Assembly (NCBI RefSeq): GCF_900544795.1
Contig: NZ_UQWM01000001.1
Length of the DNA stretch: 64,000 nt
Reading direction: 5' to 3' (one strand)
DNA from: an uncultured Phascolarctobacterium sp.
Lineage (GTDB): Bacteria > Bacillota > Negativicutes > Acidaminococcales > Acidaminococcaceae
This document shows positions 4,552 through 32,469 of the stretch, one piece after another; the first letter of the stretch is position 1; every line of letters begins with the position of its first letter. A program made the translations under genes and the position numbers. The notes beneath the pieces were generated by a model that made no database searches, was not told the origin of the DNA, and saw nothing but the letters and a program-made list of their open reading frames with translations.

Positions 4552-6297
4552 ATGAAAAAGCAAGAATTATCATGGAAGGCCGGCGGCCAGCAGGGCGAGG
4601 GCCTGGAGAGCCTGGGCGAGATTTTCGCCGCAGCTTTATGCTCTTTGGGCTATGACGTGTATGGTTACCGTCAGTTTTCGTCCCGGATCAAGGGCGGCCA
4701 CACCAGCTACAAGCTGCGCATAGCCAACCACCCTGTCGCCACTATCGCCACCGGCTGCAACCTGCTGATAGCGATGGACCCCGACACACTGGAGGTGGAT
4801 GCGCCTGAACTGACGGCTGAAGGCATTTTAGTTACCGATGCTGCCTGGCTGGAAGGTAAAAACCCAAAGGTACGCACTGTTGCTCTATCCTGGAACGAAC
4901 TGAGCAAAGCAGACGGTACAACACTGCCGAAAAACATTCTGGCTTTAGGCATCACCGCCGCTTTACTGGGCATCGATACTGCCAAACTGCTGCCGCTGCT
5001 GGAGAAGCAATACGGACGCAAAGGCGCAGAGGTAATGGCAATCAATCGTCTGGCTTTAGAAACAGGCCACGATTATATCAAGAACAACTATGCCGACCTG
5101 CTGGGCACTTTTACTATGCCGGAGTTGGAAAACCCTCAGCCGAAGCTGTTTATGCTGGGCAACGAGGCGATCGCACTGGGTGCTTTGACGGCGGGGGCAA
5201 AATTTATGTCGGCCTACCCGATAACTCCCTCTTCGGAAATAATGGAATATATGGTAAAATACGCGCCTGACGAAGGCGGCGTGATGCTGCAAACAGAGGA
5301 CGAGATAGCAGCCTGTACGATGGCTATTGGTGCCGCCTACGCTGGCGCCCGTGCTTTTACAGCAACGGCAGGGCCTGGTTTATCGCTGATGGCGGAAGCT
5401 ATTGGCCTGGCAGAAATGACCGAAACGCCGCTGGTGCTTGTTGATACGCAGCGGGGCGGCCCCAGCACAGGCCTGCCGACCAAGCATGAACAATCAGATC
5501 TAATGGCTGCTATTTACAACACTCACGGCGATACGGGCAAGATCGTACTGTCACCTTCTTCTATTGAAGAAGCGTTTTACTACACTTTCGAGGCCTTCAA
5601 TCTGGCTGAAGAATACCAATGCCCTGTTATCGTGCTGTCCGACCTGCAGCTTTCCTTAGGCAAGCAGTCGGTCACCAGCCTTGATTACGACAAGCTGCAG
5701 ATCCGTCGCGGCAAGTTGATCAAAGAAGGGTTGCCGGAGATCAAATCGCCGGAATATTTTAAACGCTACGACCTGAACGCCGAAGACAATATTTCGCTGC
5801 GCGCCCTCCCGGGCACGCCTAACGGCATTAGCCTGGGTACAGGCCTGGAGCACGACGAAGTGGGCCGGCCTTCGGAAAACAAGGCCATGCGCACAAACCA
5901 AACAAACAAACGTCTGCGCAAAATGCGTGGCGTTATAGATACTTTTGACCAACCGCTGTACGAGGACGCTCCCTATCCGCAAAGCGACCTGCTGATCATT
6001 GGCATGGCAGGCACCAGGGCTGTTATCAGCGAAGTGGCTGACGAGCTGCGCGAAAAAGGCCTGCGGGTCAACCATGTGCAGATGCGTCTGCTGTCGCCTT
6101 TCCCGGTCTGCGCACTCAACCATTATTTGCAGGAAGCAAAAAAAATCGTCGTCGTCGAGCACAACGCTACAGCGCAGCTGGCACGGTTGATTAAAATGAA
6201 TATGCCGCCTTGCCCGGAACTACACTCTATTTTGAAATACAACGGCGATATTTTCTACAAAGAAGAATTGCTGGCCAAATGCAAGGAGGTGCTCTAA
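4552..6297 (+). CDS. korA: 2-oxoacid:ferredoxin oxidoreductase alpha subunit (fused gamma-alpha, KorA-like)
   Basis: 581 aa. N-terminal PorG-like domain then TPP/pyrimidine-binding alpha domain (LGNEAIALGALTAGAKFMSAYPITPSSEI). Same size and layout as Bacillus KorA. RBS AGAAGGAGGG. Confidence 0.85.
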   Translation: MKKQELSWKAGGQQGEGLESLGEIFAAALCSLGYDVYGYRQFSSRIKGGHTSYKLRIANHPVATIATGCNLLIAMDPDTLEVDAPELTAEGILVTDAAWLEGKNPKVRTVALSWNELSKADGTTLPKNILALGITAALLGIDTAKLLPLLEKQYGRKGAEVMAINRLALETGHDYIKNNYADLLGTFTMPELENPQPKLFMLGNEAIALGALTAGAKFMSAYPITPSSEIMEYMVKYAPDEGGVMLQTEDEIAACTMAIGAAYAGARAFTATAGPGLSLMAEAIGLAEMTETPLVLVDTQRGGPSTGLPTKHEQSDLMAAIYNTHGDTGKIVLSPSSIEEAFYYTFEAFNLAEEYQCPVIVLSDLQLSLGKQSVTSLDYDKLQIRRGKLIKEGLPEIKSPEYFKRYDLNAEDNISLRALPGTPNGISLGTGLEHDEVGRPSENKAMRTNQTNKRLRKMRGVIDTFDQPLYEDAPYPQSDLLIIGMAGTRAVISEVADELREKGLRVNHVQMRLLSPFPVCALNHYLQEAKKIVVVEHNATAQLARLIKMNMPPCPELHSILKYNGDIFYKEELLAKCKEVL

Positions 6298-6298
6298 G

Positions 6299-7159
6299 AT
6301 GTCGACCTTAGCTAGTTTCCAAAATCAAGTCAAACCTAACTGGTGCCCAGGCTGCGGCGATTATGCCGTACAAATGGCTTTGCAGCAGGCAGCGGTAAAA
6401 TTAAATCTGGAGCCCCATCAGCTGGCGCTGGTTTCCGGCATTGGCTGCAGCGGCCGCATGGGCGGTTATTTGTACGCTTACGGCATGCACACTACCCACG
6501 GCAGGGCACTGCCCTTCGCCCAGGGTGTTAAGCTGGCCAACCCCGATCTGACCGTTATTGCCTGCGGCGGTGACGGCGACGGTTTTGCCATTGGCACAGC
6601 GCACACTATCCACGCTATGCGCCGCAATGTCAATATAACTTATATCCTGATGGACAACCATGTTTACGGCCTGACCAAGGGCCAGACCTCGCCCCGCAGC
6701 GACGTGGGCTTTAAAACCAAAACTACGCCGACGGGCAATATCGAAACCCCGATCGCTGCTTTGGAATTGGCGCTGGCTTCCGGCGCGTCCTTTGTAGCAC
6801 AGGGCTTTTCGGCCCAGCTGCCGCAGCTGGTCGATCTGATCGTAGCCGCTGTCAAACACGAAGGTTTCTCTTTCGTCAATGTGTTCAGCCCCTGCGTAAC
6901 CTTTAACCATACCAACACTTATGAATGGTTCCGCGAGCATCTGAGCGATGTCAAAGATATCGCCGGCTACGACCCCCATAACAAGGGGCTCGCCGCCCAG
7001 CACATTATGGAGCATGAAGGCATGCTGACCGGACTGATCTACGAAAACGACAGACAGTCGTACGAACAGGCCAGCGGGCTGGCAGCTGCCAACACTATTA
7101 AAAATGTTGAAAAGATGCCCCGAGCCAATTTTGAAAAACTGCTGGAAGGTTTTAAATAA
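6299..7159 (+). CDS. korB: 2-oxoacid:ferredoxin oxidoreductase beta subunit (TPP-binding, KorB-like)
   Basis: 286 aa. CPGCGDY and GIGCSGR motifs and GDGD TPP motif. Translationally coupled to korA (TAAGATG). Confidence 0.85.
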   Translation: MSTLASFQNQVKPNWCPGCGDYAVQMALQQAAVKLNLEPHQLALVSGIGCSGRMGGYLYAYGMHTTHGRALPFAQGVKLANPDLTVIACGGDGDGFAIGTAHTIHAMRRNVNITYILMDNHVYGLTKGQTSPRSDVGFKTKTTPTGNIETPIAALELALASGASFVAQGFSAQLPQLVDLIVAAVKHEGFSFVNVFSPCVTFNHTNTYEWFREHLSDVKDIAGYDPHNKGLAAQHIMEHEGMLTGLIYENDRQSYEQASGLAAANTIKNVEKMPRANFEKLLEGFK

Positions 7160-9257: not shown

Positions 9258-10187
9258 TCACAAAAGGTCGATATAGTCACAAGCCGCTAAAGCAGCTTCT
9301 GTACCATCGGCAGCAGCAGTTGTCAGCTGGCGCACCTTTTTGGCGCGGCCGTCACCGGCGGCAAAGATGCCCGGGCACGAGGTAGCGCAGTTTTCGTCAG
9401 TTTTGATATAGCCGTAAGCATCCAGCTCGACTAAAGCAGCAAAGGCTTTGTTATCGGGGATATGTCCAATGGCGATAAAAACTGCTTCAACATCCAAAAC
9501 CTGCTCCGTTTGGCTGACATTATCACGTACGTTCAACGATTCCAGCTTGTCAGTACCGTTGAGCGCCGTAACTTCGCTTTCCAGCAGAAAATGTACGTTT
9601 TTGTGCTCTTGCAGCTTCTCCAGCAGGCGTTTTTCGGCACTACAGGTTTTACTACGGTGGATAAGATAAACATTTTTACTGGTAGAACTTAATACCAAAG
9701 CGTCGTCAAGGGCCGTATTGCCGCCCCCGACCACAGCCACGTTTTTATCCTTAAAAAACGCGCCGTCGCAGGTGGCACAGTAGGAAACGCCGGCACCGAT
9801 GAATTTATCTTCATTATCCAGCCCTAAGGGGCGCACACGCGCGCCAGTAGCTAAAATAACGGTTTTAGCCAGCAGCTCGCCGCCATATTCAGTCTGCACG
9901 CCTTTGTGATAGCCATAATCATGCAGGCCTGTAACCTTGTCATAAGCGATCTCGGCACCCATTTTTATGGCCTGGTTATACAGCGCTTCGGCAAATTCAA
10001 AACCGGCAATGGATTCAAAGCCGGGGAAATTCTCTACATGTGAAGCGTTGATGATCTGACCGCCCTGCAGATACTGCTCGACCAGTTTAACAGATTTACC
10101 GGCCCGAGCCGCATAAACTGCCGCCGTCAATCCGGCTGTACCGGCACCGACGATCAGTACATCAGTCATGATTTGTTTCTCAGTCAT
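9258..10187 (-). CDS. trxB: Thioredoxin-disulfide reductase
   Basis: FAD motif VGAGTAGLTAAVYAARAG, redox CATCDG, NADPH motif GGGNTA. Start taken at MTEKQ with RBS GGTGA. Confidence 0.9.
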   Translation of the reverse strand: MTEKQIMTDVLIVGAGTAGLTAAVYAARAGKSVKLVEQYLQGGQIINASHVENFPGFESIAGFEFAEALYNQAIKMGAEIAYDKVTGLHDYGYHKGVQTEYGGELLAKTVILATGARVRPLGLDNEDKFIGAGVSYCATCDGAFFKDKNVAVVGGGNTALDDALVLSSTSKNVYLIHRSKTCSAEKRLLEKLQEHKNVHFLLESEVTALNGTDKLESLNVRDNVSQTEQVLDVEAVFIAIGHIPDNKAFAALVELDAYGYIKTDENCATSCPGIFAAGDGRAKKVRQLTTAAADGTEAALAACDYIDLL

Positions 10188-10212
10188 ATTTTCACCGCTT
10201 CCCAGCCGCAAT

Positions 10213-10521
10213 TTATTTCAGCATCGCCAAAATAGCTGGCTTCGGCTGTACGCCGACAGATTGTTTTACTGGTTTGCCGTCCTCAAAAACGATTAAGGTC
10301 GGGATAGTTTGAACCTTGTATTCAGAAGCCAGCTCCTGGTTGGCGTCAACATCTACCTTGCAGACTTTAACGTCGGTCAGTTCGCTGCCCAACTGGTCGA
10401 TGATGGGACCGAGCATACGGCAGGGGCCGCACCAGGAAGCCCAAAAATCCACCAATACTTTACCTTTAGCCTCCAGCACTTCTTTTGTAAAAGTTGCATC
10501 CGTAACATGTACAACTGACAT
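10213..10521 (-). CDS. trxA: Thioredoxin
   Basis: 102 aa with WCGPC active site, directly upstream of trxB. Confidence 0.9.
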   Translation of the reverse strand: MSVVHVTDATFTKEVLEAKGKVLVDFWASWCGPCRMLGPIIDQLGSELTDVKVCKVDVDANQELASEYKVQTIPTLIVFEDGKPVKQSVGVQPKPAILAMLK

Positions 10522-10692
10522 AATAACATCTCCTTTTATCCATATATTTTATATCTATCTTAATTGTACCTACTATTGATAATAATTGCAACAAATAATA
10601 ATTACATTATCATTGCTAAAAACTCCATAAAATATTCTTTGGCTTTTAAAACGGCAACAAGCACTTTGCTGTAGGCAAAGTGCTTATTGATA

Positions 10693-13036: not shown

Positions 13037-16000
13037 TTATGCTTTACCTGCCAAACGTTTGTAGTTATTCAAACGTTCCTGAGCATCCTGTTCAGTTTTG
13101 GCGAACAGTGCCTCGGCAGTTTCGGGATATTGTTTGAGCAGGGAAGAATAACGAACTTCGCCCAAAAGGAACTCTCTGAAATCTGCAGTAGGTTCTTTGG
13201 AGTCCAGAACGAATGGGTTCTCGCCTTTCTCTTTCAAAGCCGGGTTGTAACGGTAGTTTGCCCAGTAACCGCAGTCTACAGCACGTTTAGATTCCAGCTG
13301 GCTGCAGCCCATGCCTGCTTTCAAACCGTGGTTGATACACGGAGAGTAAGCAATGATGAGGGACGGACCATCATAAGCTTCGGCCTCGGCGATAGCTTTC
13401 AGGGTCTGGTTTTTGTCGGCACCCATCGAGATCTGCGCTACATAAACGTAACCATAACTCATAGCCATCATGCCCAGGTCTTTTTTCTTAGTCTTTTTGC
13501 CGCTGGCAGCAAATTTAGCAATAGCCGCCGTCGGAGTGGATTTAGAGGACTGGCCGCCGGTGTTGGAGTAAACCTCGGTATCGAAAACCATAACGTTAAC
13601 GTTTTCGCCGGAGGCAAGAACATGATCCAAACCGCCGTAGCCGATGTCATAAGCCCAGCCGTCGCCGCCGAAGATCCAGTGGCTGCGTTTGACGAAGAAT
13701 TGTTTTTCTTTGTAGAGAGCCGCGCATTTTGTGCATTGGCCCTGGTATTTTTCCAAAGCGGCAGTCAACGCTTCAGCACGATCGCGGGTACCTTCGCTGA
13801 CGTCCATATTGTCAAGCCAATCCTGCATAGCGGCTTTCAGGTCAGCCGGGATATCGGCAGCCAAAGCTTCTTTGACCATTTCAGCAACGCGGTCGCGGGA
13901 TTGTTTTACGCCCAGGTACATACCCAAACCATATTCGGCATTATCCTCGAAGAGGGAATTTGCCCAGCTGGGGCCGTGACCTTTGCTGTTAGTGGTGTAA
14001 GGCATGGACGGCGCGCTGGCGCCCCAGATAGAGGAACAGCCGGTAGCATTGGCGATCATCATGCGGTCACCAACAAGCTGAGTAACCAGCTTAGCATACG
14101 GAGTCTCTCCGCAGCCTGCGCAGGCGCCGGAGAACTCGAGCAAAGGCGGCTCGAACTGTACGCCTTTAACAGTATTTTTATTCATCGGATTAGCTTTCGG
14201 TGTAACCTTATGGGCGGTATAATCCCAATTAACAGTTTTAGCCAGCTGGCTTTCCAGGGGTTTCATGACCAAAGCTTTTTCTTTAGCCGGACAGACCTGT
14301 TCGCAGTTGCCGCAGCCGGTGCAGTCGAGCGGGGAAATAGCCATATGGAATTTAAGGCCTTTAGCGCCGACAGCATCTTTATATTCCACGCCCTGCGGAG
14401 CATTTGCAGCTTCTTCTTCCGTCATCAGGACGGGGCGGATAACTGCGTGCGGGCAGACGAAGGAACATTGGTTACATTGGATACATTTATCCATTTGCCA
14501 TTCGGGAACATTGATGGCGATGCCACGTTTTTCGTAAGCGGAAGTGCCGCTGGGGAAAGTACCGTCGACATTTTTATTAAAGGTGCTGACAGGCAGGTTA
14601 TCGCCTTCCAAACGGTTGACCGGGGTCAGGATATTATCGATGAATTCGTTGCCGGTAACCAAAATGTTAGCGTCGCCTTCGGCTTCAGCCCAGGAGGCAG
14701 GCACATCGATCTTCACAATAGCGTTGACGCCGCGGTCGATAGCGCCATAGTTCATATCCAGAACAGCCTGGCCTTTGAGGCCATAGGAATGGTCAACAGC
14801 TTCTTTCAGATATTTGACAGCGTCAGCCACCGGAATGATATCAGCCAGTTTGAAGAAAGCAGACTGCATGATCATATTGATGCGGCCGCCCAGACCGATT
14901 TCCTGCGCGATCTTGACTGCGTCGATAGTATAGAAGTTAACAGCGTTTTTAGCAATATAGCGTTTAACGTTGCCGGGCAGGTGTTTTTCCAGCTCTTCCA
15001 TAGACCAGTTGCAGTTCAGCAGGAAGGTACCGCCTTTTTTCAGGCCGGCAGTAACATCATATTTATCAACATAGGATTGATTATGTACAGCTACGAAATC
15101 TGCAAAATTGATCAGATACGGCGCGCGGATCGGTTCGTGGCCGAAACGCAGATGGGAAACAGTGATACCGCCGGATTTTTTGGAGTCGTAGGAGAAATAA
15201 CCCTGAGCATACATATCTGTGTAATCGCCGATGATCTTGATGGCGCTTTTGTTAGCACCGACAGTACCGTCGCTGCCGAGGCCCCAAAACTTACAGCTCT
15301 TCGTGCCTGCGGGGGTAGTATCGAGCGCAGTGGTCACTGTCAGAGAAGTGTTGGTAACGTCGTCTACGATACCGACAGTGAAATTGTTTTTCGGTGCTGC
15401 CGCGCCAAGATTTTCAAAAACTGCCAAAATCTCAGACGGAGTCAGCTCTTTGCTGCCTAAGCCGTAACGGCCGCCGATGATAAGCGGGGACATTTCGGAT
15501 TCGTAGAAAGCGCCACGCACATCCATGTATAAAGGTTCGCCGAAGGAGCCGGGCTCTTTGGTACGGTCCATAACAGCGATGCGTTTAACAGATTTGGGGA
15601 TAGCGCCCATAAAATGCTTGATGGAGAACGGACGGTAGAGATGGACCGCCAGCAGACCAACTTTTTTACCTTCAGCGTTAAGCTTTTCAACAACGGTCTG
15701 AATAGTTTCGCAGGCACTGCCCATAGCGATGATGATCTCTTCAGCATCGGGTGCGCCGTAGTAGTTGAACAAACCGTATTTACGGCCGGTCAGCTTGCTG
15801 ATCTCGTTCATATATTCTTCCACGATTTCCGGCAAAGCTTCATAATAAGAGTTTACAGCTTCGCGGGTCTGGAAATAGATATCGGGGTTTTGGGCAGTAC
15901 CACGTACTACCGGGTTATCAGGATTAAGGCCACGGTTACGGAAAGCAGTTACCGCATCATAATCAACTAATTTTGCCAGATCGTCATAAGCAAGCGTTTC

Positions 16001-16546
16001 GATTTTCTGGATCTCGTGGGAGGTACGGAAGCCGTCAAAGAAGTTGATGAAAGGAACACGGCCTTTGATAGCAGCCAAATGTGCTACTGCAGACAGATCC
16101 ATTACTTCCTGCACGCCGCCTTCAGCAAGCAGTGCAAAGCCGGTCTGGCGGGTAGCCATAACGTCCTGATGGTCACCAAAAATAGACAGGGAGCTAGCAG
16201 CTAACGCACGGGCAGAAACATGGAACACGCCCGGCAGCAGTTCGCCTGCCATTTTGTACATATTGGGAATCATCAGAAGGAGACCTTGCGAAGCAGTGTA
16301 GGTAGTAGTTAAAGCACCGGACTGCAAAGAACCGTGCACGGCACCTGCGGCACCTGCTTCAGATTGCATTTCCAATACTTTTACTGTTTGACCAAAAATA
16401 TTTTTCTGACCTTGGGCAGACCATTCGTCTACTACTTCTGCCATGGTAGAGGACGGGGTAATAGGATAAATAGCCGCAACATCGGTAAACGCATAAGATA
16501 TATACGCCGCAGCGGTATTACCGTCCATAGTTTTCATTTTTGTCAT
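13037..16546 (-). CDS. nifJ: Pyruvate:ferredoxin (flavodoxin) oxidoreductase, single-polypeptide PFOR
   Basis: About 1170 aa from MTKMKTMDGNTAAAY (RBS GAAGGGGA). Contains domain I, II and III, two 4Fe-4S ferredoxin motifs (CIQCNQCSFVCPHA, CTGCGNCEQVCP) and the TPP-binding domain GGDGWAYDIGYGGLDH. The 776-aa plus-strand ORF 13130..15460 is its antisense shadow. Confidence 0.9.
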   Translation of the reverse strand: MTKMKTMDGNTAAAYISYAFTDVAAIYPITPSSTMAEVVDEWSAQGQKNIFGQTVKVLEMQSEAGAAGAVHGSLQSGALTTTYTASQGLLLMIPNMYKMAGELLPGVFHVSARALAASSLSIFGDHQDVMATRQTGFALLAEGGVQEVMDLSAVAHLAAIKGRVPFINFFDGFRTSHEIQKIETLAYDDLAKLVDYDAVTAFRNRGLNPDNPVVRGTAQNPDIYFQTREAVNSYYEALPEIVEEYMNEISKLTGRKYGLFNYYGAPDAEEIIIAMGSACETIQTVVEKLNAEGKKVGLLAVHLYRPFSIKHFMGAIPKSVKRIAVMDRTKEPGSFGEPLYMDVRGAFYESEMSPLIIGGRYGLGSKELTPSEILAVFENLGAAAPKNNFTVGIVDDVTNTSLTVTTALDTTPAGTKSCKFWGLGSDGTVGANKSAIKIIGDYTDMYAQGYFSYDSKKSGGITVSHLRFGHEPIRAPYLINFADFVAVHNQSYVDKYDVTAGLKKGGTFLLNCNWSMEELEKHLPGNVKRYIAKNAVNFYTIDAVKIAQEIGLGGRINMIMQSAFFKLADIIPVADAVKYLKEAVDHSYGLKGQAVLDMNYGAIDRGVNAIVKIDVPASWAEAEGDANILVTGNEFIDNILTPVNRLEGDNLPVSTFNKNVDGTFPSGTSAYEKRGIAINVPEWQMDKCIQCNQCSFVCPHAVIRPVLMTEEEAANAPQGVEYKDAVGAKGLKFHMAISPLDCTGCGNCEQVCPAKEKALVMKPLESQLAKTVNWDYTAHKVTPKANPMNKNTVKGVQFEPPLLEFSGACAGCGETPYAKLVTQLVGDRMMIANATGCSSIWGASAPSMPYTTNSKGHGPSWANSLFEDNAEYGLGMYLGVKQSRDRVAEMVKEALAADIPADLKAAMQDWLDNMDVSEGTRDRAEALTAALEKYQGQCTKCAALYKEKQFFVKRSHWIFGGDGWAYDIGYGGLDHVLASGENVNVMVFDTEVYSNTGGQSSKSTPTAAIAKFAASGKKTKKKDLGMMAMSYGYVYVAQISMGADKNQTLKAIAEAEAYDGPSLIIAYSPCINHGLKAGMGCSQLESKRAVDCGYWANYRYNPALKEKGENPFVLDSKEPTADFREFLLGEVRYSSLLKQYPETAEALFAKTEQDAQERLNNYKRLAGKA

Positions 16547-16663
16547 TTGATCCCCTTCTTTCTTTTGATTTAGAGTACAAGATATGGGAACCGGCCTTAT
16601 CGGTTCCTGTGATACGCAAAACAAGTGTGCTTCAGGGCATAGTTCACCCTTGCTCACATAATT

Positions 16664-16692
16664 AGTATACACTATTTAATCACTTTTGTAAA
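16664..16692 (-). promoter_or_regulatory. Putative sigma-A promoter of the PFOR gene (TTTACA-17-TATACT), followed by a 110-nt leader with a small hairpin
   Basis: Read on minus: tttacaaaagtgattaaatagtgtatact. Leader hairpin ggaaccg-N7-cggttcc. Confidence 0.45.
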
Positions 16693-23600: not shown

Positions 23601-24899
23601 CTATTTTTTGCGATGCTCTTCCAGGTACTGCCCCACGATCTTGACGGCGCAGTAATCACCACACATAGAGCAGGCTTCATCCTCGGCCTTATTCTTTTTA
23701 TTGCGGTAGGCCTGAGCCTTGACCGGATCGAGGGCTAAACGGATCTGCTCCGGCCAGTCCAGGTTTTTACGGGCCACAGCCATCTCCCTGTCCCAGGCGA
23801 TGGCCTGCGGCAGACCTTTAGCAATATCGGCCGCATGGGCGGCAATACGGGTAGCGATCACCCCTTCGCGCACATCGTCGATATCGGGTAATCCCAAATG
23901 CTCGGCCGGCGTCACATAGCACAAAAAATCGGCGCCGCTGACTGCCGCCAAAGTACCGCCGATAGCGGAAGTGATATGGTCATACCCGGGCGCCACATCA
24001 GTCACCAGCGGCCCCAGCACATAAAATGGTGCACCGTGGCACAGACGTTTTTGCAGCTGCATATTGGCGGCGATTTGGTTATAGGGCACATGGCCCGGCC
24101 CTTCTACCATCACCTGCACACCCCTGTCCCAAGCCCGTTGGGTCAGCTCACCTAAATTCAGCAGTTCCTGAATCTGCGCCCGGTCGGTAGCGTCAGCCAG
24201 GCAGCCCGGCCGCAACCCGTCGCCCAGACTGATCGTTACGTCATATTCAGCGCAGATATCCAATATTTCATCGTAATATTCATACAAAGGGTTTTCCTTA
24301 TCGTTGTGCAGCATCCAGCCGGTAATAAAGCTGCCGCCACGGCTCACCACGTCCATGATCCGCCCCTCGGTCGTCAGGGCATGCAGCACCTGCCGGTTGA
24401 TACCGCAGTGGATGGTCATAAAGTCTGCCCCATCGGCCGCCTGCTGACGGATGACTGCAAACAGATCCTCTTTGGTCATTTCTACAACAGCGCCACGTTT
24501 TTTGATAGTCTCGACCGTAGCCTGATAGATGGGCACCGTACCCACCATAACTGTCGATGCGTTGATAATAGCCTTACGGGAAGCGTCGATATTATCCCCT
24601 GTCGAAAGATCCATCACCGCATCGGCACCAGCTTCGATAGCGGCACGCAGCTTGGCAAGTTCCGGCTCCGGGTCTGGATAAGCGCTGGAAGTACCAATAT
24701 TGGCATTGACCTTGACCGACAAGCCCTGTCCCACACCGCGCGGCACCAGATTTTTGTGTCTGCTGTTGCAACAGATCGCTATGGTGCCTGCCGCCACACC
24801 CTCTCTGATAAACTCCGGCGCCAAATCCTCCTGTGCCGCTACCTGGCGCATCGCCTCGGTAATGATGCCCTGACGGGCCAACTGCATCTGTGTTGCCAT
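23601..24899 (-). CDS. thiC: Phosphomethylpyrimidine synthase ThiC
   Basis: Collinear with radical-SAM ThiC; C-terminal CSMCGDYC cluster motif. Start at MATQMQ with RBS AAGGAG. Confidence 0.9.
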   Translation of the reverse strand: MATQMQLARQGIITEAMRQVAAQEDLAPEFIREGVAAGTIAICCNSRHKNLVPRGVGQGLSVKVNANIGTSSAYPDPEPELAKLRAAIEAGADAVMDLSTGDNIDASRKAIINASTVMVGTVPIYQATVETIKKRGAVVEMTKEDLFAVIRQQAADGADFMTIHCGINRQVLHALTTEGRIMDVVSRGGSFITGWMLHNDKENPLYEYYDEILDICAEYDVTISLGDGLRPGCLADATDRAQIQELLNLGELTQRAWDRGVQVMVEGPGHVPYNQIAANMQLQKRLCHGAPFYVLGPLVTDVAPGYDHITSAIGGTLAAVSGADFLCYVTPAEHLGLPDIDDVREGVIATRIAAHAADIAKGLPQAIAWDREMAVARKNLDWPEQIRLALDPVKAQAYRNKKNKAEDEACSMCGDYCAVKIVGQYLEEHRKK

Positions 24900-24904
24900 G
24901 ATCA

Positions 24905-25050
24905 ATTCTCCTTTCAAAATAAAAAGCCAATCTCCCGCAGGAAATTGGCTTTTGCTCGCGCTTGTGCCACTTCCCTACGCCGGTATTATCCGTAAATCAG
25001 GTTCTAAGGGTCGGCCTTGCGGCCTCTCAGCATAATGCGCCCCCAGTGGA
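24905..25050 (-). promoter_or_regulatory. TPP (THI-box) riboswitch with terminator-type expression platform
   Basis: Minus strand reads GGGGCGC...CTGAGAGG...ACCCTTAGAACCTGATTTACGGATAATACCGGCGTAGGGAA, then terminator hairpin agccaatttcc-N4-ggagattggct plus U-run. A TTGCTA-17-TAAAAT promoter lies at about 25060..25088. Confidence 0.85.
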
Positions 25051-25107
25051 TAGACTTATGATATTAAATTAATTTTAGCATTTTACACCTACAATAGCAA
25101 GTAAAAC

Positions 25108-27338
25108 TTAAATTTTATCGCCAGCCTCATAAACATGGTAGCCGCCTTTACCGCTTTTTTTGACAACATAGGCGGCCATATCAGACAAATGGACAAGGAC
25201 GTCGAAGTCGCGCCCATGCTCGGGGAAGAAACAGATGCCAACGCTGGCCGAAACAACGATGCCGGAATATTCAGCCTGTAATACGCCGCACAGAGCTCCA
25301 GCCCGTTTGACAGTTGCCTCGCGCGAAAGGCCCGGCGCGTAAATATAAAACTCATCGCCGCCAAAGCGGCCGATAACATCGCCGGTGCGGAAGAACTGGC
25401 GCAGCTTCGCCGCCATTTCCTGCAGCACTTTGTCGCCAACCTGATGCCCCAGTGTATCATTAACTGTTTTAAAGTTATCCAGATCAGCAAAGATGAAGCT
25501 GCCAAAAGTAGCCTGCTGCAGCAGCGGTTCTACCACGGTTTTAAAACCTGCTTTATTATAGACGCCAGTCAGTTCATCAAGCCTGCTTTTATCCTGCAGC
25601 TCGGCCTTTTCACGCATTTCCTCATCTATATTATCCAGCTTGCCTACCAGGCGGATCACCGTATCATGCTTGATGATGCAGTTGGCCCGAGCCCTGAACC
25701 AGTGCTGCTCGCCGTTAGCATAGCCAAGCAGCAGTTCCGCACTATCCGAATGTTTTTCTCTGATGATCTTCTCGACGAAACTACTTACAGCGTCGATATT
25801 TTCAGCCTCCAGAGGCTGCTGTGCTACCGGCGCAACGCCGCGCCTGCCAAATTTCCAAAAGGCTCAAAACCAAAGATCGCCCGGTATAAAGGCGACCAGG
25901 CGATATGCCTTTGCAGCACGTCTACGTCAAAAATTATTTCGTTCGAAGCTTGTACCATCAGGTCGTAGCGTTCCTTCTCCAACGCCAGCTCCTGGATGAT
26001 GCGTTTCTGCTCGCTGATATCGACGATAAGGCAGTACATGAGCAGTACGCCGTCCTTATCCACGCCCACACTGCCACGAACCAGAGCCGGTATATAATGG
26101 CCATCCTTATGCAGCAGCCGCATTTCCAGGTCGATTTTATCGTCAAGATGCCATTCACCCGTCAGCAGTGCTTGAAATTTAGCCATATCTTCATCATAGA
26201 TCAAATGGGCCTGTAGCAGCGACGGTACTTTTTCCAGTTCAGCGCGGCTATGGCCGATCAGCTTCAAAAAACCATCATTGGCGTAGCGAATACAGAAGCC
26301 TACCTCATTGACTAAAGTCAGCACACCGCCGTTAATATTGTCGCCGATCTGGCGCAGCATCTCTTCTCTTTCCCTGATCTCGCGCTGTACTTCTTTATTT
26401 TCCAGCCATTTTTTCGCCCCATAGGTGCTAAGCAGCCAAACCAGAAAAGCAAGTCCGACATTCAGGAAAATGATTTTAGTACCGATCCAGCCCCCGACCC
26501 TGTCGACCTCTAAAATACACTTGGTGTTTGGCAGATCGATATTATACGTACGCCCGCCATACATAGCCATAGCCTCGTGGTTAGAAGCGGCGATGGTAAG
26601 CCGGCTGCCGTTTTCCAGCTTGTAAAGGTGATACCTGTGTTGCTGCCCGTCCAGGGCGGCAAAATTTATATTCTGCAAAGCGTAATGCTTACTATCAGGG
26701 TTCATGCTCAATGTAATGGCCACAAACCCCCAGGGAGAACCGTCCTGATTTCTGACGGCAACGAGGCCTGTCAGCACCAGTTCCTGATCCTGCACCCGCC
26801 TGAACGGCCCTTCGATGACCAGCTCGCCCTGCTTCTGATAGACCTTGCTGATAGCATCATCTCTGCCAGGCAGCGACATCAGATCGAGTCCCAAAGCACT
26901 CTTGTTTTCTTCATAAGGGTAGCAGTAGGAAATAACGCTTTTAGCAGGCACACCATCAACAACAGGCCCTTCTGCCCGTGCCAGAGAAACATTCTTGATC
27001 AACGTCATATCATCGAAAGCCGCACAGACGCTGTCCATTCTGGCAATGCCGATCTCCGACATATTCCGGTAACCTTTTGCGTTTACAGCTATTTTGTTAC
27101 CCCGCGCATCCAGCATCACCTGTTCGATCAATTCTCTTAAAACAAAGGCGTCATCGTAAAGGTCCATCAGCTCGTAACGAATCTGCGAACCGTAGCTTTG
27201 CGCCAAAAAAGCAGCCCGCTCACGGGTATATTTATAAGTATTATAAAGACTGACGCTTGCAGCAGCAGCGCAAACCAGTGCCGCAGTTATACTAAGCAGC
27301 AGCAGGTATTTGATATTATAAATACGTTTTTTCGCCAT
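25108..27338 (-). pseudogene. Sensor diguanylate cyclase (TM, periplasmic sensor domain, TM, PAS, GGDEF) split by a frameshift between 25827 and 25863
   Basis: The upstream frame (25824..27338) ends ...FGFEPFGNLAGAALRR*. The downstream frame is open from 25863, continues the PAS domain (SDSAELLLGYANGEHWFRARANCI) and the GGDEF domain (RFGGDEFYIY). The frames overlap around an A4 run at 25857..25860. Confidence 0.7.
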
Positions 27339-27455
27339 GTCGGGCCTTCTTCCAACAATATTCTAACCTCACTTTTATTATAGCTTATTTCATATCATCG
27401 GACATCATTTTTATTTATTTTCCAAATATTTTTAGTCATTGGCACATATTCGCAA

Positions 27456-27495
27456 AAAAAAGCCTGCCGACATTATTTGTCGGCAGGCTTTGAGC
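27456..27495 (-). terminator. Terminator of the encapsulin operon
   Basis: agcctgccgaca-aataa-tgtcggcaggct hairpin with T8 on minus. Confidence 0.75.
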
Positions 27496-27502
27496 TTAAC
27501 GA

Positions 27503-28342
27503 TCAGCCAAAAATTACCACTGCATCCTTACATTTGATGCGCAGCAAAGCTGTCTCAAATACGCGGAACTCATGATTAAGTTTAGCAGAGCCCAAATAAC
27601 CGGTAATAAGATCCTGGCCAATGACAATGTCCATATTCTGCGGTTCGGCGCAGACCAATACGGCTTTATTGAGACCCAAAGCCGGAGTCATATATAATCC
27701 ACCGCCCACCAGGTTTTTGATGCGTTCACTTTCAAGCAATCCGGTGCTGACCTGCAAACGCTGTAATTGAGCGTAAAGATCAGGGCTGACTGCCAAAGCG
27801 TAACGGCCTCTCAAATTCTTGTCCGCAAAATGCTGCAAACCTTTAACTACGTCACTAAAAGCACTCTCGTCTTTGCTCCAATCGGATTTTTTAACTTTGA
27901 AAGCGCCCTCGACAGTAGCCAGGCCTTCATAACCGGCTTTAGGGTTACCGGCAAAAATCATCAGGTCTTCTTTTTGAGCACAGGCATTAGCGGCTGCGCT
28001 TACTGCGGCCAAATCGATAGGCATACCGATCATTTTAGCCTGTTCCATATCTCTCCAGGATAAAACGAAATCCCTGTAGATCATGGGCAATTCTTTAAAG
28101 CTGCGTCCGGTAACTTTTACCGCTTCCTCTTCTTCACCGAAGAAATCGACGCTGCCTTTTTCAGCCGGGGTCAGCACATCTACATTCACGCTTTGAGCGC
28201 CTGCGCCCAAAGGACCGTAGATCTGCAAAAACTTACGGCCAACCAAAACATTTCTTGCCGCATTGACAGCGGCGCTATCGATAGCCTGCCATTGTTCGGC
28301 AGACAAGCTTACGTCATCACGCATTAAAAATTCCATAACCAT
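27503..28342 (-). CDS. enc: Family-1 encapsulin nanocompartment shell protein (linocin M18 / HK97-fold)
   Basis: 279 aa, collinear with T. maritima encapsulin. LSAEQWQAIDSAAVNAARNVLVGRKFLQIYGPLG matches LTEKQWQEIDNRA...YGRKFVDVEGPYG. IVIGQDLITGY matches LILGQDLSIGY. Confidence 0.85.
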   Translation of the reverse strand: MVMEFLMRDDVSLSAEQWQAIDSAAVNAARNVLVGRKFLQIYGPLGAGAQSVNVDVLTPAEKGSVDFFGEEEEAVKVTGRSFKELPMIYRDFVLSWRDMEQAKMIGMPIDLAAVSAAANACAQKEDLMIFAGNPKAGYEGLATVEGAFKVKKSDWSKDESAFSDVVKGLQHFADKNLRGRYALAVSPDLYAQLQRLQVSTGLLESERIKNLVGGGLYMTPALGLNKAVLVCAEPQNMDIVIGQDLITGYLGSAKLNHEFRVFETALLRIKCKDAVVIFG

Positions 28343-28347
28343 ACCTC

Positions 28348-28725
28348 CTATTTATCCAGCAGACTGCCAACGGTAGTCGCTTTATTGGTGACTTCCGTTT
28401 TGTCATCGGCAATGCCGGCCGCTTTCATTCCTAAACCTTCCAGCATTTCCTTAACTTCGCCTTCGCCGGAAATAAAATGCTCGGCTTCTGCCGGGTCCAA
28501 ATAACGCAGCAGGGTCATCAGTTCGCCGACATGGGCTTTTTCTTCATCACGGATATCGGCAATAACCATTTTTGCCACTTCGTCATCAGTTGCCTGTACA
28601 TGGGCGTCATACAGGTAAATAGCTTCCAGCTCACCTGCAATATCCAGACGTACGGCTTGGATAAGTTCCTCTTTGGTTAATTTTCTGTTGACATTACCTT
28701 GAAACGGGTTTGCAAAATTTGGCAT
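28348..28725 (-). CDS. encFtn: Encapsulated ferritin-like protein (EncFtn) with C-terminal encapsulin targeting peptide
   Basis: About 125 aa. Ferritin-like di-iron ligands in the E-x-x-H arrangement (ELEAIYLYDAH, EEKAHVGE). C-terminal tail TVGSLLDK resembles GSL-type cargo-loading peptides. Immediately upstream of the shell gene. Start at MPNF with RBS GAAGGTGG. Confidence 0.8.
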   Translation of the reverse strand: MPNFANPFQGNVNRKLTKEELIQAVRLDIAGELEAIYLYDAHVQATDDEVAKMVIADIRDEEKAHVGELMTLLRYLDPAEAEHFISGEGEVKEMLEGLGMKAAGIADDKTEVTNKATTVGSLLDK

Positions 28726-28958
28726 TACTGCCACCACCTTCCTGATTTTGTTTGTTTGCAGTGTGTAATCGCAACAAATAAGAATTATCTTTTACCATAT
28801 TATAGCACTGTAAATTTAAAAAAGCAATTAACTTTTCGCATAGTACTGCGTGACGGAAAACTTCTCCGTACTTTTATTATAACACCGCTGCTGTTTTCTA
28901 CAACCCAAAAACCAGCTCCTTAAAGTATTTTTTGCTAAGATAATCACTTACAAAAACT

Positions 28959-28988
28959 AAAAAACAGCCGCCCCACGCGGAGCGGCTG
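28959..28988 (-). terminator. Terminator downstream of the DUF554 gene
   Basis: cagccgc-N10-gcggctg hairpin with T-run on minus. Confidence 0.6.
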
Positions 28989-29000
28989 TTTTGCTGCGGC

Positions 29001-29684
29001 TTAACTAAAGCAGCGCAGCAGCAGGACCCATATGGGCGGCACCAAAAGTGCCGGCAGCATATTAAGGGTCTTAAATTTTTTCAATTCTAAAATAGCCAAG
29101 CCAGAGCTCATAATAAAGACGCCGCCAATAATGGATATCTCCGTCATCAGCTCCGCCGTTAAAAAGGGTGCCAACCAGCCGGCAAACATATAAATGGATC
29201 CCTGCCAAACGAACAGTACCAGGCCAGCCAGGCCGATACCGATGCCATAAGCCGAAGCCAATACCATCGAAGCGACAAAATCAAGTGTCGCATTAGTAAA
29301 AAGATAGGTATTATTGCCGTACAACGCACTTTCGACAGGACCCAAAATAGATAGAGTACCGATGCAGAACAGCAGGATCGCCGTCGCCAAACCCTGCCCC
29401 AGGTCAGAGCCGCCTTTAAAGCGTCCGGCCAGCCCTTGGAAACGTCCGTCGATATCCAGCGCCGTACCAAGCACGCTGCCGATAGCCAGGCTTAAAATGA
29501 ACAGGACCGGGAACTTACTGTGCGGCATATTGCTGACCACAGCATTGGCGCCAAGGCCTACCGTTGCCAGACCTAAAGCGTCAAACAGGGCCTTTTTATA
29601 ATTTTCTTTGATGCCCCGTCCAAAAACACTGCCCAGCAGGCTGCCTGCCAGAATAGTGCTTGTATTGACGATAGTACCCAGCAT
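29001..29684 (-). CDS. DUF554-family membrane protein
   Basis: 227 aa, Gly/Ala-rich polytopic protein typical of the YdfK/YqgA family. Confidence 0.6.
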   Translation of the reverse strand: MLGTIVNTSTILAGSLLGSVFGRGIKENYKKALFDALGLATVGLGANAVVSNMPHSKFPVLFILSLAIGSVLGTALDIDGRFQGLAGRFKGGSDLGQGLATAILLFCIGTLSILGPVESALYGNNTYLFTNATLDFVASMVLASAYGIGIGLAGLVLFVWQGSIYMFAGWLAPFLTAELMTEISIIGGVFIMSSGLAILELKKFKTLNMLPALLVPPIWVLLLRCFS

Positions 29685-29751: not shown

Positions 29752-32469
29752 CTACAACAGTTCGCCGTAACGTTTGATATAAAGTTTTTTCATTACCGTG
29801 GCCAAAGCCATGTAAGCCAGCGTGATAGCGGCCAACCAGCCGAAATAATCAGCAGGCAGCGATGCTAGCCCGATAGCGTGACCCGCAGCGGTAAAGGGTA
29901 TCACTGTCAGTACTGCAATGCCAATAAAGGTGAGCAGCGTGACCGGGGCCGACGCATGGCTTTGCAGGAAGGGGATCTTCGGCGTTCTGATCATATGGAT
30001 GACCAGAGTCTGCGTCCACATGGATTCTACGAACCAACCGGCCTGGAACACGGCGATATACAGCGCCTGCTGCGCCGGATCGGTCAGTTGATGGAACAAG
30101 AGTCCTCCTACAGCCGCCGGGCAAATGATGAAATACATCAGCGCGTAGGTCGCGATGTCAAAAACTGAACTGGTCGGCCCGATCCAGATCATAAAATTGC
30201 TGACGCTGGAAGCATCCCATTTTCTGGGCCGGGTCAAAAATTCCTTATCCACGTTATCCCAGGGGATCGCCGTGCAGGAAATATCATAGATCAAATTAAG
30301 CAAAATCAGATGGATGGACGCCATAGGCAAAAACGGCAGGAAGGCGCTGGCAATCAGGACCGAGAAGATATTGCCGAAGTTGGACGAAGCCGTCATCTTG
30401 ATATATTTGATCATATTGGCATAAGTTTTGCGGCCTTCGATGATGCCCTTTTCCAGCACCAGCAGGTCTTTTTCCAGCAGGATAACGTCAGCAGATTCCT
30501 TGGCGATATCGACTGCCGTATCGACAGAGATACCCACATCGGAAGCCTTCATGGCCGCCGCATCGTTGATACCGTCGCCAAGATAACCTACAGAATGGCC
30601 ATTTTCACGCAGCAACCGCACGACCCTGGCTTTTTGGGCCGGGGCTAATTTGGCAAAAACAGTGGTAGTTTCAGCCGCTGCTGCCAGTTCTTCATTGCTC
30701 ATGGCCTCCACTTCACTGCCCAGCAGCATTTTTTCTATGGACAGCCCCACATGGCGGCACACACATTTAGTGACCTTCTCGTTGTCGCCGGTCAAGATCT
30801 TCACGGCAACACCGTGCTCCTGCAGCGCTTTGATGGCTGCGGCCGTAGTTTCTTTCGGCGGGTCGAGGAAAGCCAGATAGCCTATCAGTACCATCTCGTT
30901 TTCATCGGCAACCGAAAAAGCGCCAACAGGCGACGGATTAGTTTTTTGGGCTACAGCGATGACGCGCATCCCATCCTCGTTCAACTCGTCCACCTTCTCC
31001 ATCACGATTTTTTTCATGGAAGCGGTCAGCGGCACTACTCGGCCTGCATATTCTACGAAAGCTGAAATATTGAGCATTTCTTCAACGGCACCCTTGGTTA
31101 TCATCTGGGTCTTGCCATTTTTATCTTCCACCACCACGCTCATGCGGCGGCGTTCAAAATCAAAGGGTATTTCGTCCACCTTGTTATAAAAGTTTTCCAG
31201 GTCGCCCAGCTGGTCGTGCTGCGTTTCCTGTTCCAGCTTCGTCCTGCTGATAATGGCGATATCCATCAGATTTTTCAACCCGGTCTGGTAAAAGCTGTTC
31301 AAAAAAGCGTGCCGCAAGACCCGAGGCGCTTCGTTGCCTTCGATATCCAGATGGTATTCCAGCACTACCTTGTCCTGGGTCAGCGTGCCTGTTTTATCGG
31401 TGCAGAGGATATCGATAGAGCCTAAATTTTGGATAGAATTAAGATTTTTGATGATGACTTTTTCTTTAGACATCGATACCGCGCCCTTAGCCAGGCAGGT
31501 AGTAACGATCATCGGCAGCATTTCCGGAGTCAGGCCGACGGCCACCGAAATAGCAAACAGGGCGGCGTTCATCCAGTCGCCTTTGGTAAAACCGTTGATG
31601 AACAGTACCACCGGCACCATGACCAGCATAAAGCGGATCAATACCCAGGAAACGGAATTAACGCCTTTTTCAAAGCTGGTTTTGGGTGGCTTGCCGCTCA
31701 GTGCTCTGGCCATCTCACCCAGCAGCGTATCGTTACCCGTAGCCACAACAACGCCGACGGCAGTGCCGCTGATAACATTGCTGCCCATAAAGGCCAGATT
31801 GGAATTTTCGGTAATGGCGGCAGCCACTTCTGCCTGACACAAGTATTTTTCTACCGGCTCACTTTCACCGGTTAGTGCCGACTGGCTGACAAACAGGTCT
31901 TTCGCAAAAATGATGCGGATATCAGCCGGCACCATATCGCCTGCCGATAAATGCACGATATCGCCTACCACCACTTCGTCCAGCGGTATTTCCTGCTGCC
32001 CCGTTTCCAACCGCTCTACACAGGTAGTAGTTTCGATCATCGCCGACAGCTTGGCTGCCGCGTTGCCGCTTCTGGTCTCCTGCACAAAACGCAACAGTCC
32101 CGAAATCAGTACCATCGTCGTAATGATGATCACAGTGATGGCGTCTTCCTCGCCCGGATCGGACAGATAAATATCCGTAAAGCCCGACACCACAGCCAGC
32201 ACGAATAAGATAGCCGTGAACGGATTAACAAAAGCCTTGCAGATACGGGTAAACAGCGACTCCTTCTTGCCGTGGGTCACCACATTGTCGCCATAGCGAT
32301 CACGCACGCTTTCCACCATGCCCGTAGGCAGCCCTTTGCCTGTAGTGCCCAGCTGCCGCAAAACAGTGTTTACATCATGGCCTGCGGCAAAACGCAGCCT
32401 TTCGCTGACCTGCTCACGATGCAGGATCTCCTGCGGGTTATTTTTAAAAAACAGTAATTTCTTTTTCAT
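29752..32469 (-). CDS. mgtA: Magnesium-importing P-type ATPase
   Basis: 905 aa. DKTGTLT phosphorylation motif, [14 protein letters not shown] hinge, about 10 TM helices. RBS GGAGGTAG. Confidence 0.9.

Follow-up and report, generated by a model that had tools for sequence, protein, structure and literature searches.

A two-gene Family 1 encapsulin operon with an EncFtn-type cargo in a gut Phascolarctobacterium

Do two small adjoining genes in the genome of an uncultured Phascolarctobacterium encode a protein nanocompartment, and if so, how large would it be and what would it do in a strict gut anaerobe? The genes lie on the minus strand of a 64-kb stretch of contig NZ_UQWM01000001.1, called the window below, where the list of open reading frames (ORFs) placed them at 27503-28725, the cargo gene first and the shell gene after it. 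An earlier reading of the bare sequence, the original prediction, had described a two-gene encapsulin operon in which a ferritin-like gene for 125 amino acids (aa) directly precedes the shell gene, and both ORFs were indeed found in this order. We are highly confident that together they encode, as one operon, a Family 1 encapsulin nanocompartment and the EncFtn (Flp-TP) protein that it takes up as cargo; by homology, the cage would be of the T=3 or T=4 type (T, triangulation number) and would serve iron mineralisation. Nothing was found to contradict the encapsulin/EncFtn identification.

Shell and cargo proteins

The shell protein matched the NCBIfam equivalog encap_f1 (NF041155) with 288 bits against a cutoff of 100, covering profile positions 1-261 of 261, and Pfam Linocin_M18 (PF04454) with an E-value of 4.3e-71. 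The best match of solved structure was EncA of Myxococcus xanthus (41% identity, E 4e-68), aligned with a single one-residue gap. The encapsulin 9i8e of Dendrosporobacter quercicolus gave an E-value of 2e-63, and the next-best solved matches were those of Quasibacillus thermotolerans (6nj8) and Bacillus methanolicus (9fy6). The encapsulin of Thermotoga maritima (maritimacin), with which the original prediction had compared the protein, also aligned from end to end, at 27% identity and E 1.5e-19, EncA being far closer. A first AlphaFold2 model built on an alignment of 14 sequences reached a predicted local distance difference test (pLDDT) score of 62.9 and was discarded, and the model built on 115 sequences, with a mean pLDDT of 90.1, was used. 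Foldseek comparison of this model gave template modelling (TM) scores of 0.86-0.90 with EncA, 9fy6, 9i8e and related solved encapsulins, and 0.77-0.80 with T=1 shells. The HK97 fold and the membership in Family 1 are regarded as established. An identical 277-aa protein is present in RefSeq (WP_177566496.1) under the name "family 1 encapsulin nanocompartment shell protein".

The cargo protein matched NCBIfam EncB_fam (NF058679) with 171 bits (cutoff 90) and, just above the threshold, Pfam EncFtn-like (PF22277) with 28.7 bits (cutoff 27); its score against TIGR04535 was 105 bits, under the cutoff of 125. The profile searches of the two proteins thus agreed with the original prediction. Within the PDB, the best cargo match was EncC of M. 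xanthus (7s8t, 9e-18), followed by the EncFtn domain of Pyrococcus furiosus (5n5e, 1.4e-16). Residues 20-89 of the EncFtn of Rhodospirillum rubrum (5da5) were recovered from the PDB search and compared with the cargo by BLASTP, and the ungapped alignment with residues 27-84 (38% identity over 58 residues) placed E32, Y39, E62 and H65 at the same numbering in both proteins. E32, E62 and H65 are the ligands of the ferroxidase centre of R. rubrum EncFtn and Y39 is a conserved tyrosine, as shown by mutagenesis (PMC11202242). Relatives were collected by scanning one genome per species, which provided 80 loci with a shell homolog and 78 cargo homologs for alignment, and the four residues were invariant in all of the 78. 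The original prediction had spoken of E-x-x-H ligand pairs; the ligands are present, but one monomer holds a single E-x-x-H motif (E62-H65) together with E32, and the site would be completed only across a dimer. A system of the IMEF type was considered and rejected, as the cargo is EncFtn-type with an E-x-x-H motif and the operon contains neither a ferredoxin nor a second cargo.

The cargo C-terminus reads ...NKATTVGSLLDK, and its tail TVGSLLDK had been proposed to be a cargo-loading peptide. In the 78 homologs G120 and L122 were invariant, T118 was kept in 74, S121 in 73 and V119 in 64 (otherwise I), and the residue after L122 was usually a hydrophobic L or I. The approximately 20 residues before the peptide (99-117) were poorly conserved and variable in length, resembling a linker. 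The same TVGSL core is found in PEKRLTVGSLRR, the peptide of M. xanthus EncC, whose structure on the EncA shell has been solved (PMC10402063). This conservation and the identity with the EncC core favoured the proposal, and the tail would direct the cargo into the shell. No other ORF with a TVGSL-type tail was found in the window, nor within 6 kb on either side in the 80 loci.

The pairing of the two genes was also conserved, since in 78 of the 80 related Bacillota loci the shell gene was immediately preceded, in the same orientation, by an EncFtn homolog. The nearest loci were those of Phascolarctobacterium faecium DSM 14760 and two uncultured Phascolarctobacterium genomes (95% aa identity), followed by unclassified Bacillota, Sporomusa, Propionispira and Propionispora (54-61%) and then by many Clostridia. 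The window showed approximately 80% DNA identity to P. faecium DSM 14760 over a syntenic 9.4 kb, in which the order mgtA, DUF554, cargo, shell and diguanylate cyclase was kept; the window comes from a different Phascolarctobacterium species. Among the genomes of the one-per-species collection, none had a shell gene identical to this one. The identity to P. faecium was 99.2% at the protein level versus 91% at the nucleotide (nt) level for the cargo, and 95% versus 86.7% for the shell. As protein identity exceeds DNA identity in both genes, they are under strong purifying selection. The cluster of shell sequences at 90% identity had 929 members, and one P. faecium variant occurred on 627 contigs.

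The homologs suggest how such a compartment would work. The 125-aa cargo is expected to form annular decamers, in which E32, E62 and H65 of two monomers would together form each di-iron centre, close to Y39; the ring is proposed from homologs crystallised as decamers, the crystals containing 10 chains (7s8t) and 30 chains (5n5e). The HK97-fold shell would close into an icosahedral cage, most likely of the T=3 or T=4 type, with 180-240 subunits and a size of 32-42 nm. Fe(II) would enter through pores and be oxidised by the cargo with O2 or H2O2 during transient exposure, and the ferric mineral would be held inside the shell, by which the cytoplasm of this anaerobe, with its many Fe-S enzymes, would be freed of Fenton-active iron. 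The organism had been described as rich in PFOR and KOR, and the window does encode a pyruvate:ferredoxin oxidoreductase (PFOR; 13037..16672) and a two-subunit 2-oxoacid:ferredoxin oxidoreductase (4552..7159), which fits a metabolism rich in Fe-S enzymes.

Operon layout, expression signals and role

The coordinates of the operon, its signals and the neighbouring features are collected in Table 1. The cargo ORF has an alternative GTG start at 28737 that would give 129 aa, which is unlikely to be used because this codon lies inside the Shine-Dalgarno-like sequence of the gene. From its first ATG the shell ORF extends over 27503..28342 and encodes 279 aa, the length given in the original prediction. 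The AGGAGG sequence is, however, 1 nt from this ATG and 7 nt from the ATG at 28336, a spacing that favours the latter, and the product is most likely a protein of 277 aa starting at Met3, the same length as called in RefSeq. The two coding regions are 11 nt apart, and this spacing together with the overlap of the shell Shine-Dalgarno sequence with the cargo stop codon implies that the translation of cargo and shell may be tight or coupled. The short gap, this overlap and the promoter-like sites conserved in related species also suggest that both genes would share one promoter, as had been supposed. A strong terminator had likewise been noticed after the operon; it was found as a strong intrinsic terminator, which the terminator scan placed at 27491..27459. 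A search of the operon leader found no Rfam RNA family at the gathering threshold.

Table 1. Coordinates of the encapsulin operon, its putative signals and neighbouring features in the window
Feature	Position	Strand	Remarks
Cargo gene, EncFtn-type (EncB/EncC family)	28348..28725	-	125 aa from ATG; profile matches
Ligand codons of the cargo	E32 28630-28632; Y39 28609-28611; E62 28540-28542; H65 28531-28533	-	Verified in the sequence
C-terminal targeting peptide TVGSLLDK	28351..28374	-	End of the cargo; conserved core TVGSL
Shine-Dalgarno-like GGAAGGTGG	~28742..28734	-	Before the cargo ATG; read from the sequence
Shell gene, Family 1 encapsulin	27503..28336	-	277 aa from Met3; ORF reaches ATG at 28342
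Shell Shine-Dalgarno AGGAGG	28344..28349	-	Overlaps the cargo TAG stop (28350..28348)
Intrinsic terminator of the operon	27451..27491	-	AAAGCCTGCCGACA-aataa-TGTCGGCAGGCTTT then TTTTT; 14-bp stem, 8 GC pairs
Distal promoter-like site	28876..28903	-	-35 TTGTAG (28903..28898), 16-nt spacer, extended -10 TGTTATAAT (28884..28876)
Proximal promoter-like site	28799..28827	-	-35 TTGCTT (28827..28822), 17-nt spacer, extended -10 TGCTATAAT (28807..28799)
Operator-like block	28755..28793	-	After the proximal -10 and ahead of the ribosome-binding site; core TAATTCTTATTTGTTGCGATTA (28787..28766)
Second operator-like copy	10583..10604	-	Overlaps the -35 of a putative TTGCAA-17-TACAAT promoter for trxA-trxB
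trxA	10213..10521	-	Downstream of the second motif copy
trxB	9258..10211	-	Thioredoxin reductase; downstream of trxA
DUF554 gene	29001..29684	-	Upstream of the cargo gene
Terminator of the mgtA-DUF554 unit	28992..28961	-	Terminator scan
mgtA	29752..32469	-	NCBIfam Mg-translocating P-type ATPase, 1168-1199 bits
M-box riboswitch RF00380	32775-32932	-	93.7 bits; precedes mgtA

Two candidate promoters upstream of the cargo gene were recognised by eye and by conservation. Both hexamers of the distal site were invariant in 5 Phascolarctobacterium loci, its -35 matching the consensus at 3/6 positions, and the proximal site was conserved across the same loci. A short inverted repeat, ACGGAGAAGTTTTCCGT, was seen between the two sites at 28853-28869; it was not conserved in the loci of the P. 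faecium group and is probably not significant.

Downstream of the proximal site, an operator-like block of approximately 40 nt was almost invariant in the 5 loci, in surroundings of approximately 80% DNA identity. Its core recurred once in the window with 2 mismatches in 19 specified bases, when 0.03 occurrences were expected by chance, and the second copy is located at the putative promoter of trxA-trxB. The 22-mer TAATTNTTATTTGTTGCNATTA had 117 matches in metagenomes, mostly human-gut assemblies, of which 55 were upstream of trxA, 34 upstream of EncFtn and 3 elsewhere; the remaining 25 were not followed within 200 nt by an ORF of 60 aa or more and were probably located at contig ends. As the matches linked to trxA and EncFtn were all Phascolarctobacterium-like, these counts do not represent independent events. 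The motif that the encapsulin and trxA-trxB promoters have in common may define a small regulon. It spans the start of the predicted encapsulin transcript and overlaps the -35 of the predicted trxA-trxB promoter. We tentatively propose that TAATTNTTATTTGTTGCNATTA might be the operator of a repressor that responds to redox state or peroxide, perhaps a member of the Fur/PerR family, coupling the encapsulin, whose compartment may be a large T=3/T=4 one, to thioredoxin in Phascolarctobacterium. If this were true, the compartment would be an inducible defence against oxygen exposure in one of the most prevalent Negativicutes of the human gut. To our knowledge, EncFtn-loaded shells as large as T=3 or T=4 are not yet on record for any bacterial anaerobe.

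Candidate regulators were compared with the operator by means of their consensus sequences. Rex was dropped, since TTGTTAAnnnnTTAACAA fitted the operator poorly by eye. An assignment to Fur (TGATAATnATTATCA) or PerR (TTATAATnATTATAA) was also not adopted, because these consensuses matched only 10-11 of 14-15 positions. Scanning of the 64-kb window with the Fur consensus revealed no enrichment beyond chance at the motif sites.

The role of the compartment was considered in the light of the genes that accompany the operon in relatives. In 17 related Clostridia loci the shell gene was followed directly, in the same orientation, by a desulfoferrodoxin (superoxide reductase) gene (e.g. L052, 6903-7277), and in 6 related loci a rubrerythrin gene occupied this place (e.g. 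L042, 7873-8430); neither gene follows the operon in the window. A role in oxidative stress was favoured over pure iron storage because of these neighbours in relatives and the motif shared with trxA-trxB. It is doubtful that the compartment is instead a constitutive main iron store under iron control of the Fur type and not a stress-induced detoxifier, although several points speak for it: GATAAT occurs in the operator-like block together with an incomplete 7-1-7 half-site pattern of the Fur family (10 of 14-15 positions, against the Fur and PerR consensus), none of the few ORFs scanned in these 64 kb of the genome was recognised as a ferritin or Dps gene, and IMEF encapsulins have been proposed as the primary iron stores of other Bacillota (PMC6668986). 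The presence of the motif on the promoter of thioredoxin and thioredoxin reductase, whose function is in redox stress and not in iron, and the association of the operon with superoxide reductase and rubrerythrin in relatives argue against such a store. Further iron stores may also be encoded outside these 64 kb of the genome.

For the encapsulin/EncFtn operon as a whole, some limits should be noted. The proposed mechanism assumes that an oxidant is available to a strict anaerobe. A scan of the minus strand of 28738-29000 with the sigma-70 consensus returned no qualifying promoter, the distal site having been missed because its -35 matches only half of the consensus. With respect to docking, R28, R34 and D242 were kept among the five polar residues by which EncA contacts the peptide (PMC10402063), but Q38 and G212 stand in place of the two acidic contacts D38 and D213 and the peptide tail is LDK, not RR, so that docking would differ in its details; the two replacements may go together with the absence of a basic RR tail. 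Finally, EncA forms T=1 shells when expressed without cargo (PMC10402063), and expression of the shell alone could for this reason mislead on size.

Shell size, weaker readings and neighbouring genes

Particles of 24 nm had been predicted originally, and this size had to be revised on the basis of sequence. The shell is most likely of the T=3 or T=4 type, 32-42 nm in size, when co-expressed with its cargo, as judged from sequence relatedness and a common insertion. The PDB matches below E 1e-50 were wild-type or engineered variants of natural T=3 or T=4 shells (EncA, Q. thermotolerans and B. methanolicus), together with 9i8e/9i8f of D. quercicolus, whose four-chain asymmetric unit would agree with T=4. 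The T=1 shells matched at E 1e-19 or worse, and the identity was 20-27% to T=1 shells versus 36-41% to T=3/T=4 shells. An insertion of 8 residues at the start of the E-loop (residues ~53-60) was common to the shell, EncA and 9i8e and absent from T. maritima; the E-loop is held to set the triangulation number (PMC11202242, PMC6668986). The nearest solved relatives of the cargo, EncC and the P. furiosus EncFtn, likewise belong to T=3 systems.

These three lines, namely the identities, the E-loop insertion and the cargo relatives, make it unlikely that the same system forms a T=1 shell of 60 subunits and 24 nm like that of T. maritima. Such a shell would accord with the full-length alignment with the T. 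maritima encapsulin, with the T=1 assembly of EncA, the closest solved homolog, in the absence of cargo, and with a low Foldseek root-mean-square deviation (rmsd) of 2.6 A to the T=1 EncA protomer 7s21, a value to be read with the caution that Foldseek TM scores and rmsd do not separate the protomer conformations of T=1, T=3 and T=4 shells. The encapsulin of Alkaliphilus metalliredigens had been considered as a possible close relative and was dropped, since its shell is T=1 and of the same type as that of T. maritima.

RefSeq lists the identical cargo protein (WP_177566494.1) as a "demethoxyubiquinone hydroxylase family protein". This name is wrong and stems from a marginal and partial Pfam COQ7 match, and the EncB_fam profile NF058679 would rename the protein. 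The chance that the cargo is in fact a COQ7-like demethoxyubiquinone hydroxylase is negligible: besides the RefSeq name, it is backed by a COQ7 score of 24.6 bits (cutoff 23.5), which is limited to profile positions 3-56 of 169, in a protein that has one E-x-x-H motif where a COQ7 domain has two, is too short at 125 aa for a four-helix di-iron bundle and scores 171 bits against EncB_fam. Encapsulin-linked "CoQ7" proteins are in fact Flp ferroxidase cargos (Andreas and Giessen, PMC8346489). It is just as improbable that the shell gene is a remnant HK97-type prophage capsid gene beside an unrelated cargo gene, since its weak matches to the PHROG 264 major head protein (38 bits) and Pfam Major_capside (33 bits) are expected from the HK97 fold that encapsulins share, the encapsulin equivalog scores far higher, no portal, terminase, protease or other phage gene adjoins it (the only PHROG match being the weak head match of the shell itself), and the pairing with a targeting-peptide cargo is kept in nearly all related loci across many Bacillota families.

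The neighbours of the shell gene were mgtA, the DUF554 gene and a CHASE/PAS diguanylate cyclase gene, with no phage packaging or morphogenesis gene among them. The original prediction had mgtA with an M-box and a DUF554 membrane protein following the operon. These genes and the riboswitch are present, but they are situated upstream on the same strand, and mgtA-DUF554 is read as a transcription unit separate from the encapsulin operon because it has its own predicted terminator. A P-type ATPase of any kind was nearby in only 7 related loci.

Just past the operon terminator, the CHASE/PAS/GGDEF diguanylate cyclase gene (25108-27338, minus strand) was broken into two ORFs, one of 504 aa and one of 183 aa. 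In P. faecium the ortholog is intact, with 741 aa, and its alignment spans both ORFs, passing from frame -1 to frame -3 at a junction at ~25836-25869; the split is a frameshift, reflecting either a pseudogene or a sequencing error. A thiamine pyrophosphate (TPP) riboswitch (RF00059, 64.5 bits) was found at 24955-25054 on the minus strand upstream of a 438-aa ORF (23601..24917, minus strand), which is probably a thiamine-biosynthesis gene.

Comparison with known systems

The system is real and was correctly read, but it is of a known kind: encapsulins of Family 1 that carry a Flp/EncFtn cargo are a well-characterised group, its operon type has been catalogued in Bacillota, and its shell is already named in RefSeq. 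The main value of the analysis is the correct annotation, by which the RefSeq cargo name in this genus should become EncFtn/EncB-family cargo. The system occurs in a very prevalent human-gut commensal, where it could matter for iron handling and oxygen tolerance, and nanocage engineers may take an interest in its shell, a candidate for a large (T=3/T=4) cage of mesophilic origin. The motif shared with trxA-trxB is the sole new lead; it hints at regulation by oxidative stress and is testable.

Andreas and Giessen (2021; PMC8346489) catalogued 2,383 Family 1 operons. The part of their supplementary table available here includes Negativicutes with a "CoQ7" cargo, among them Propionispora sp. 2/2-37 (P22_3858), with Pelosinus sp. 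UFO1 as another example; Phascolarctobacterium was not found among the entries listed in that part. As far as these entries go, the "CoQ7"/Flp operons of Negativicutes and Clostridia are of the same operon type and cargo family as the present one and carry the same Pfam COQ7 flag, and the Propionispora protein P22_3858 corresponds to our match P0022, at 55% identity. Our literature search found no paper on an encapsulin in Phascolarctobacterium and none mentioning encapsulin for Negativicutes, and searches for PDB 9I8E, Dendrosporobacter or linocin with encapsulin likewise returned nothing.

With the EncFtn-encapsulin systems of R. rubrum and Haliangium ochraceum (5da5, 5n5f, 7odw), the present operon shares the register of E32, Y39, E62 and H65 and an arrangement in which the gene for a decameric Flp bearing a targeting peptide precedes that of the shell, the decamer being expected here by homology. 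In contrast, the shells of these systems are T=1 and only ~23-24% identical to the shell described here, and the similarity of the cargo is limited to the core aligned above. T. maritima (3dkt), with its Flp cargo, resembles the present system in Family 1 membership, full-length alignment of the shell, an anaerobic host and a ferritin-like cargo. Its shell differs in the low identity, in lacking the 8-residue insertion at the E-loop start and two smaller insertions, and in its T=1 architecture of 24 nm, and its targeting peptide is another one.

The shells of D. quercicolus (9i8e/9i8f; another Negativicute), Q. thermotolerans (6nj8) and B. methanolicus (9fy6) are Bacillota shells like the present one, with 36-39% identity and TM scores of 0.86-0.90, and their asymmetric units contain four chains, as those of T=4 shells do. 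Q. thermotolerans differs in its cargo, which is IMEF, a four-helix bundle, and not EncFtn (PMC6668986). The closest counterpart is the EncA/EncB/EncC system of M. xanthus (4pt2, 7s20, 7s8t, 8tk7), which provides the most similar shell, the best cargo match in EncC, the TVGSL core and the conserved R28, R34 and D242. Its shell has D38 and D213 where Q38 and G212 are found here, and the peptide ATTVGSLLDK differs from RLTVGSLRR of M. xanthus in being without the leucine of pocket P1 and the RR tail. Whereas M. xanthus uses three cargos (EncB, EncC and EncD) encoded at scattered loci, the strict gut anaerobe studied here has a single cargo gene directly upstream of its shell gene.

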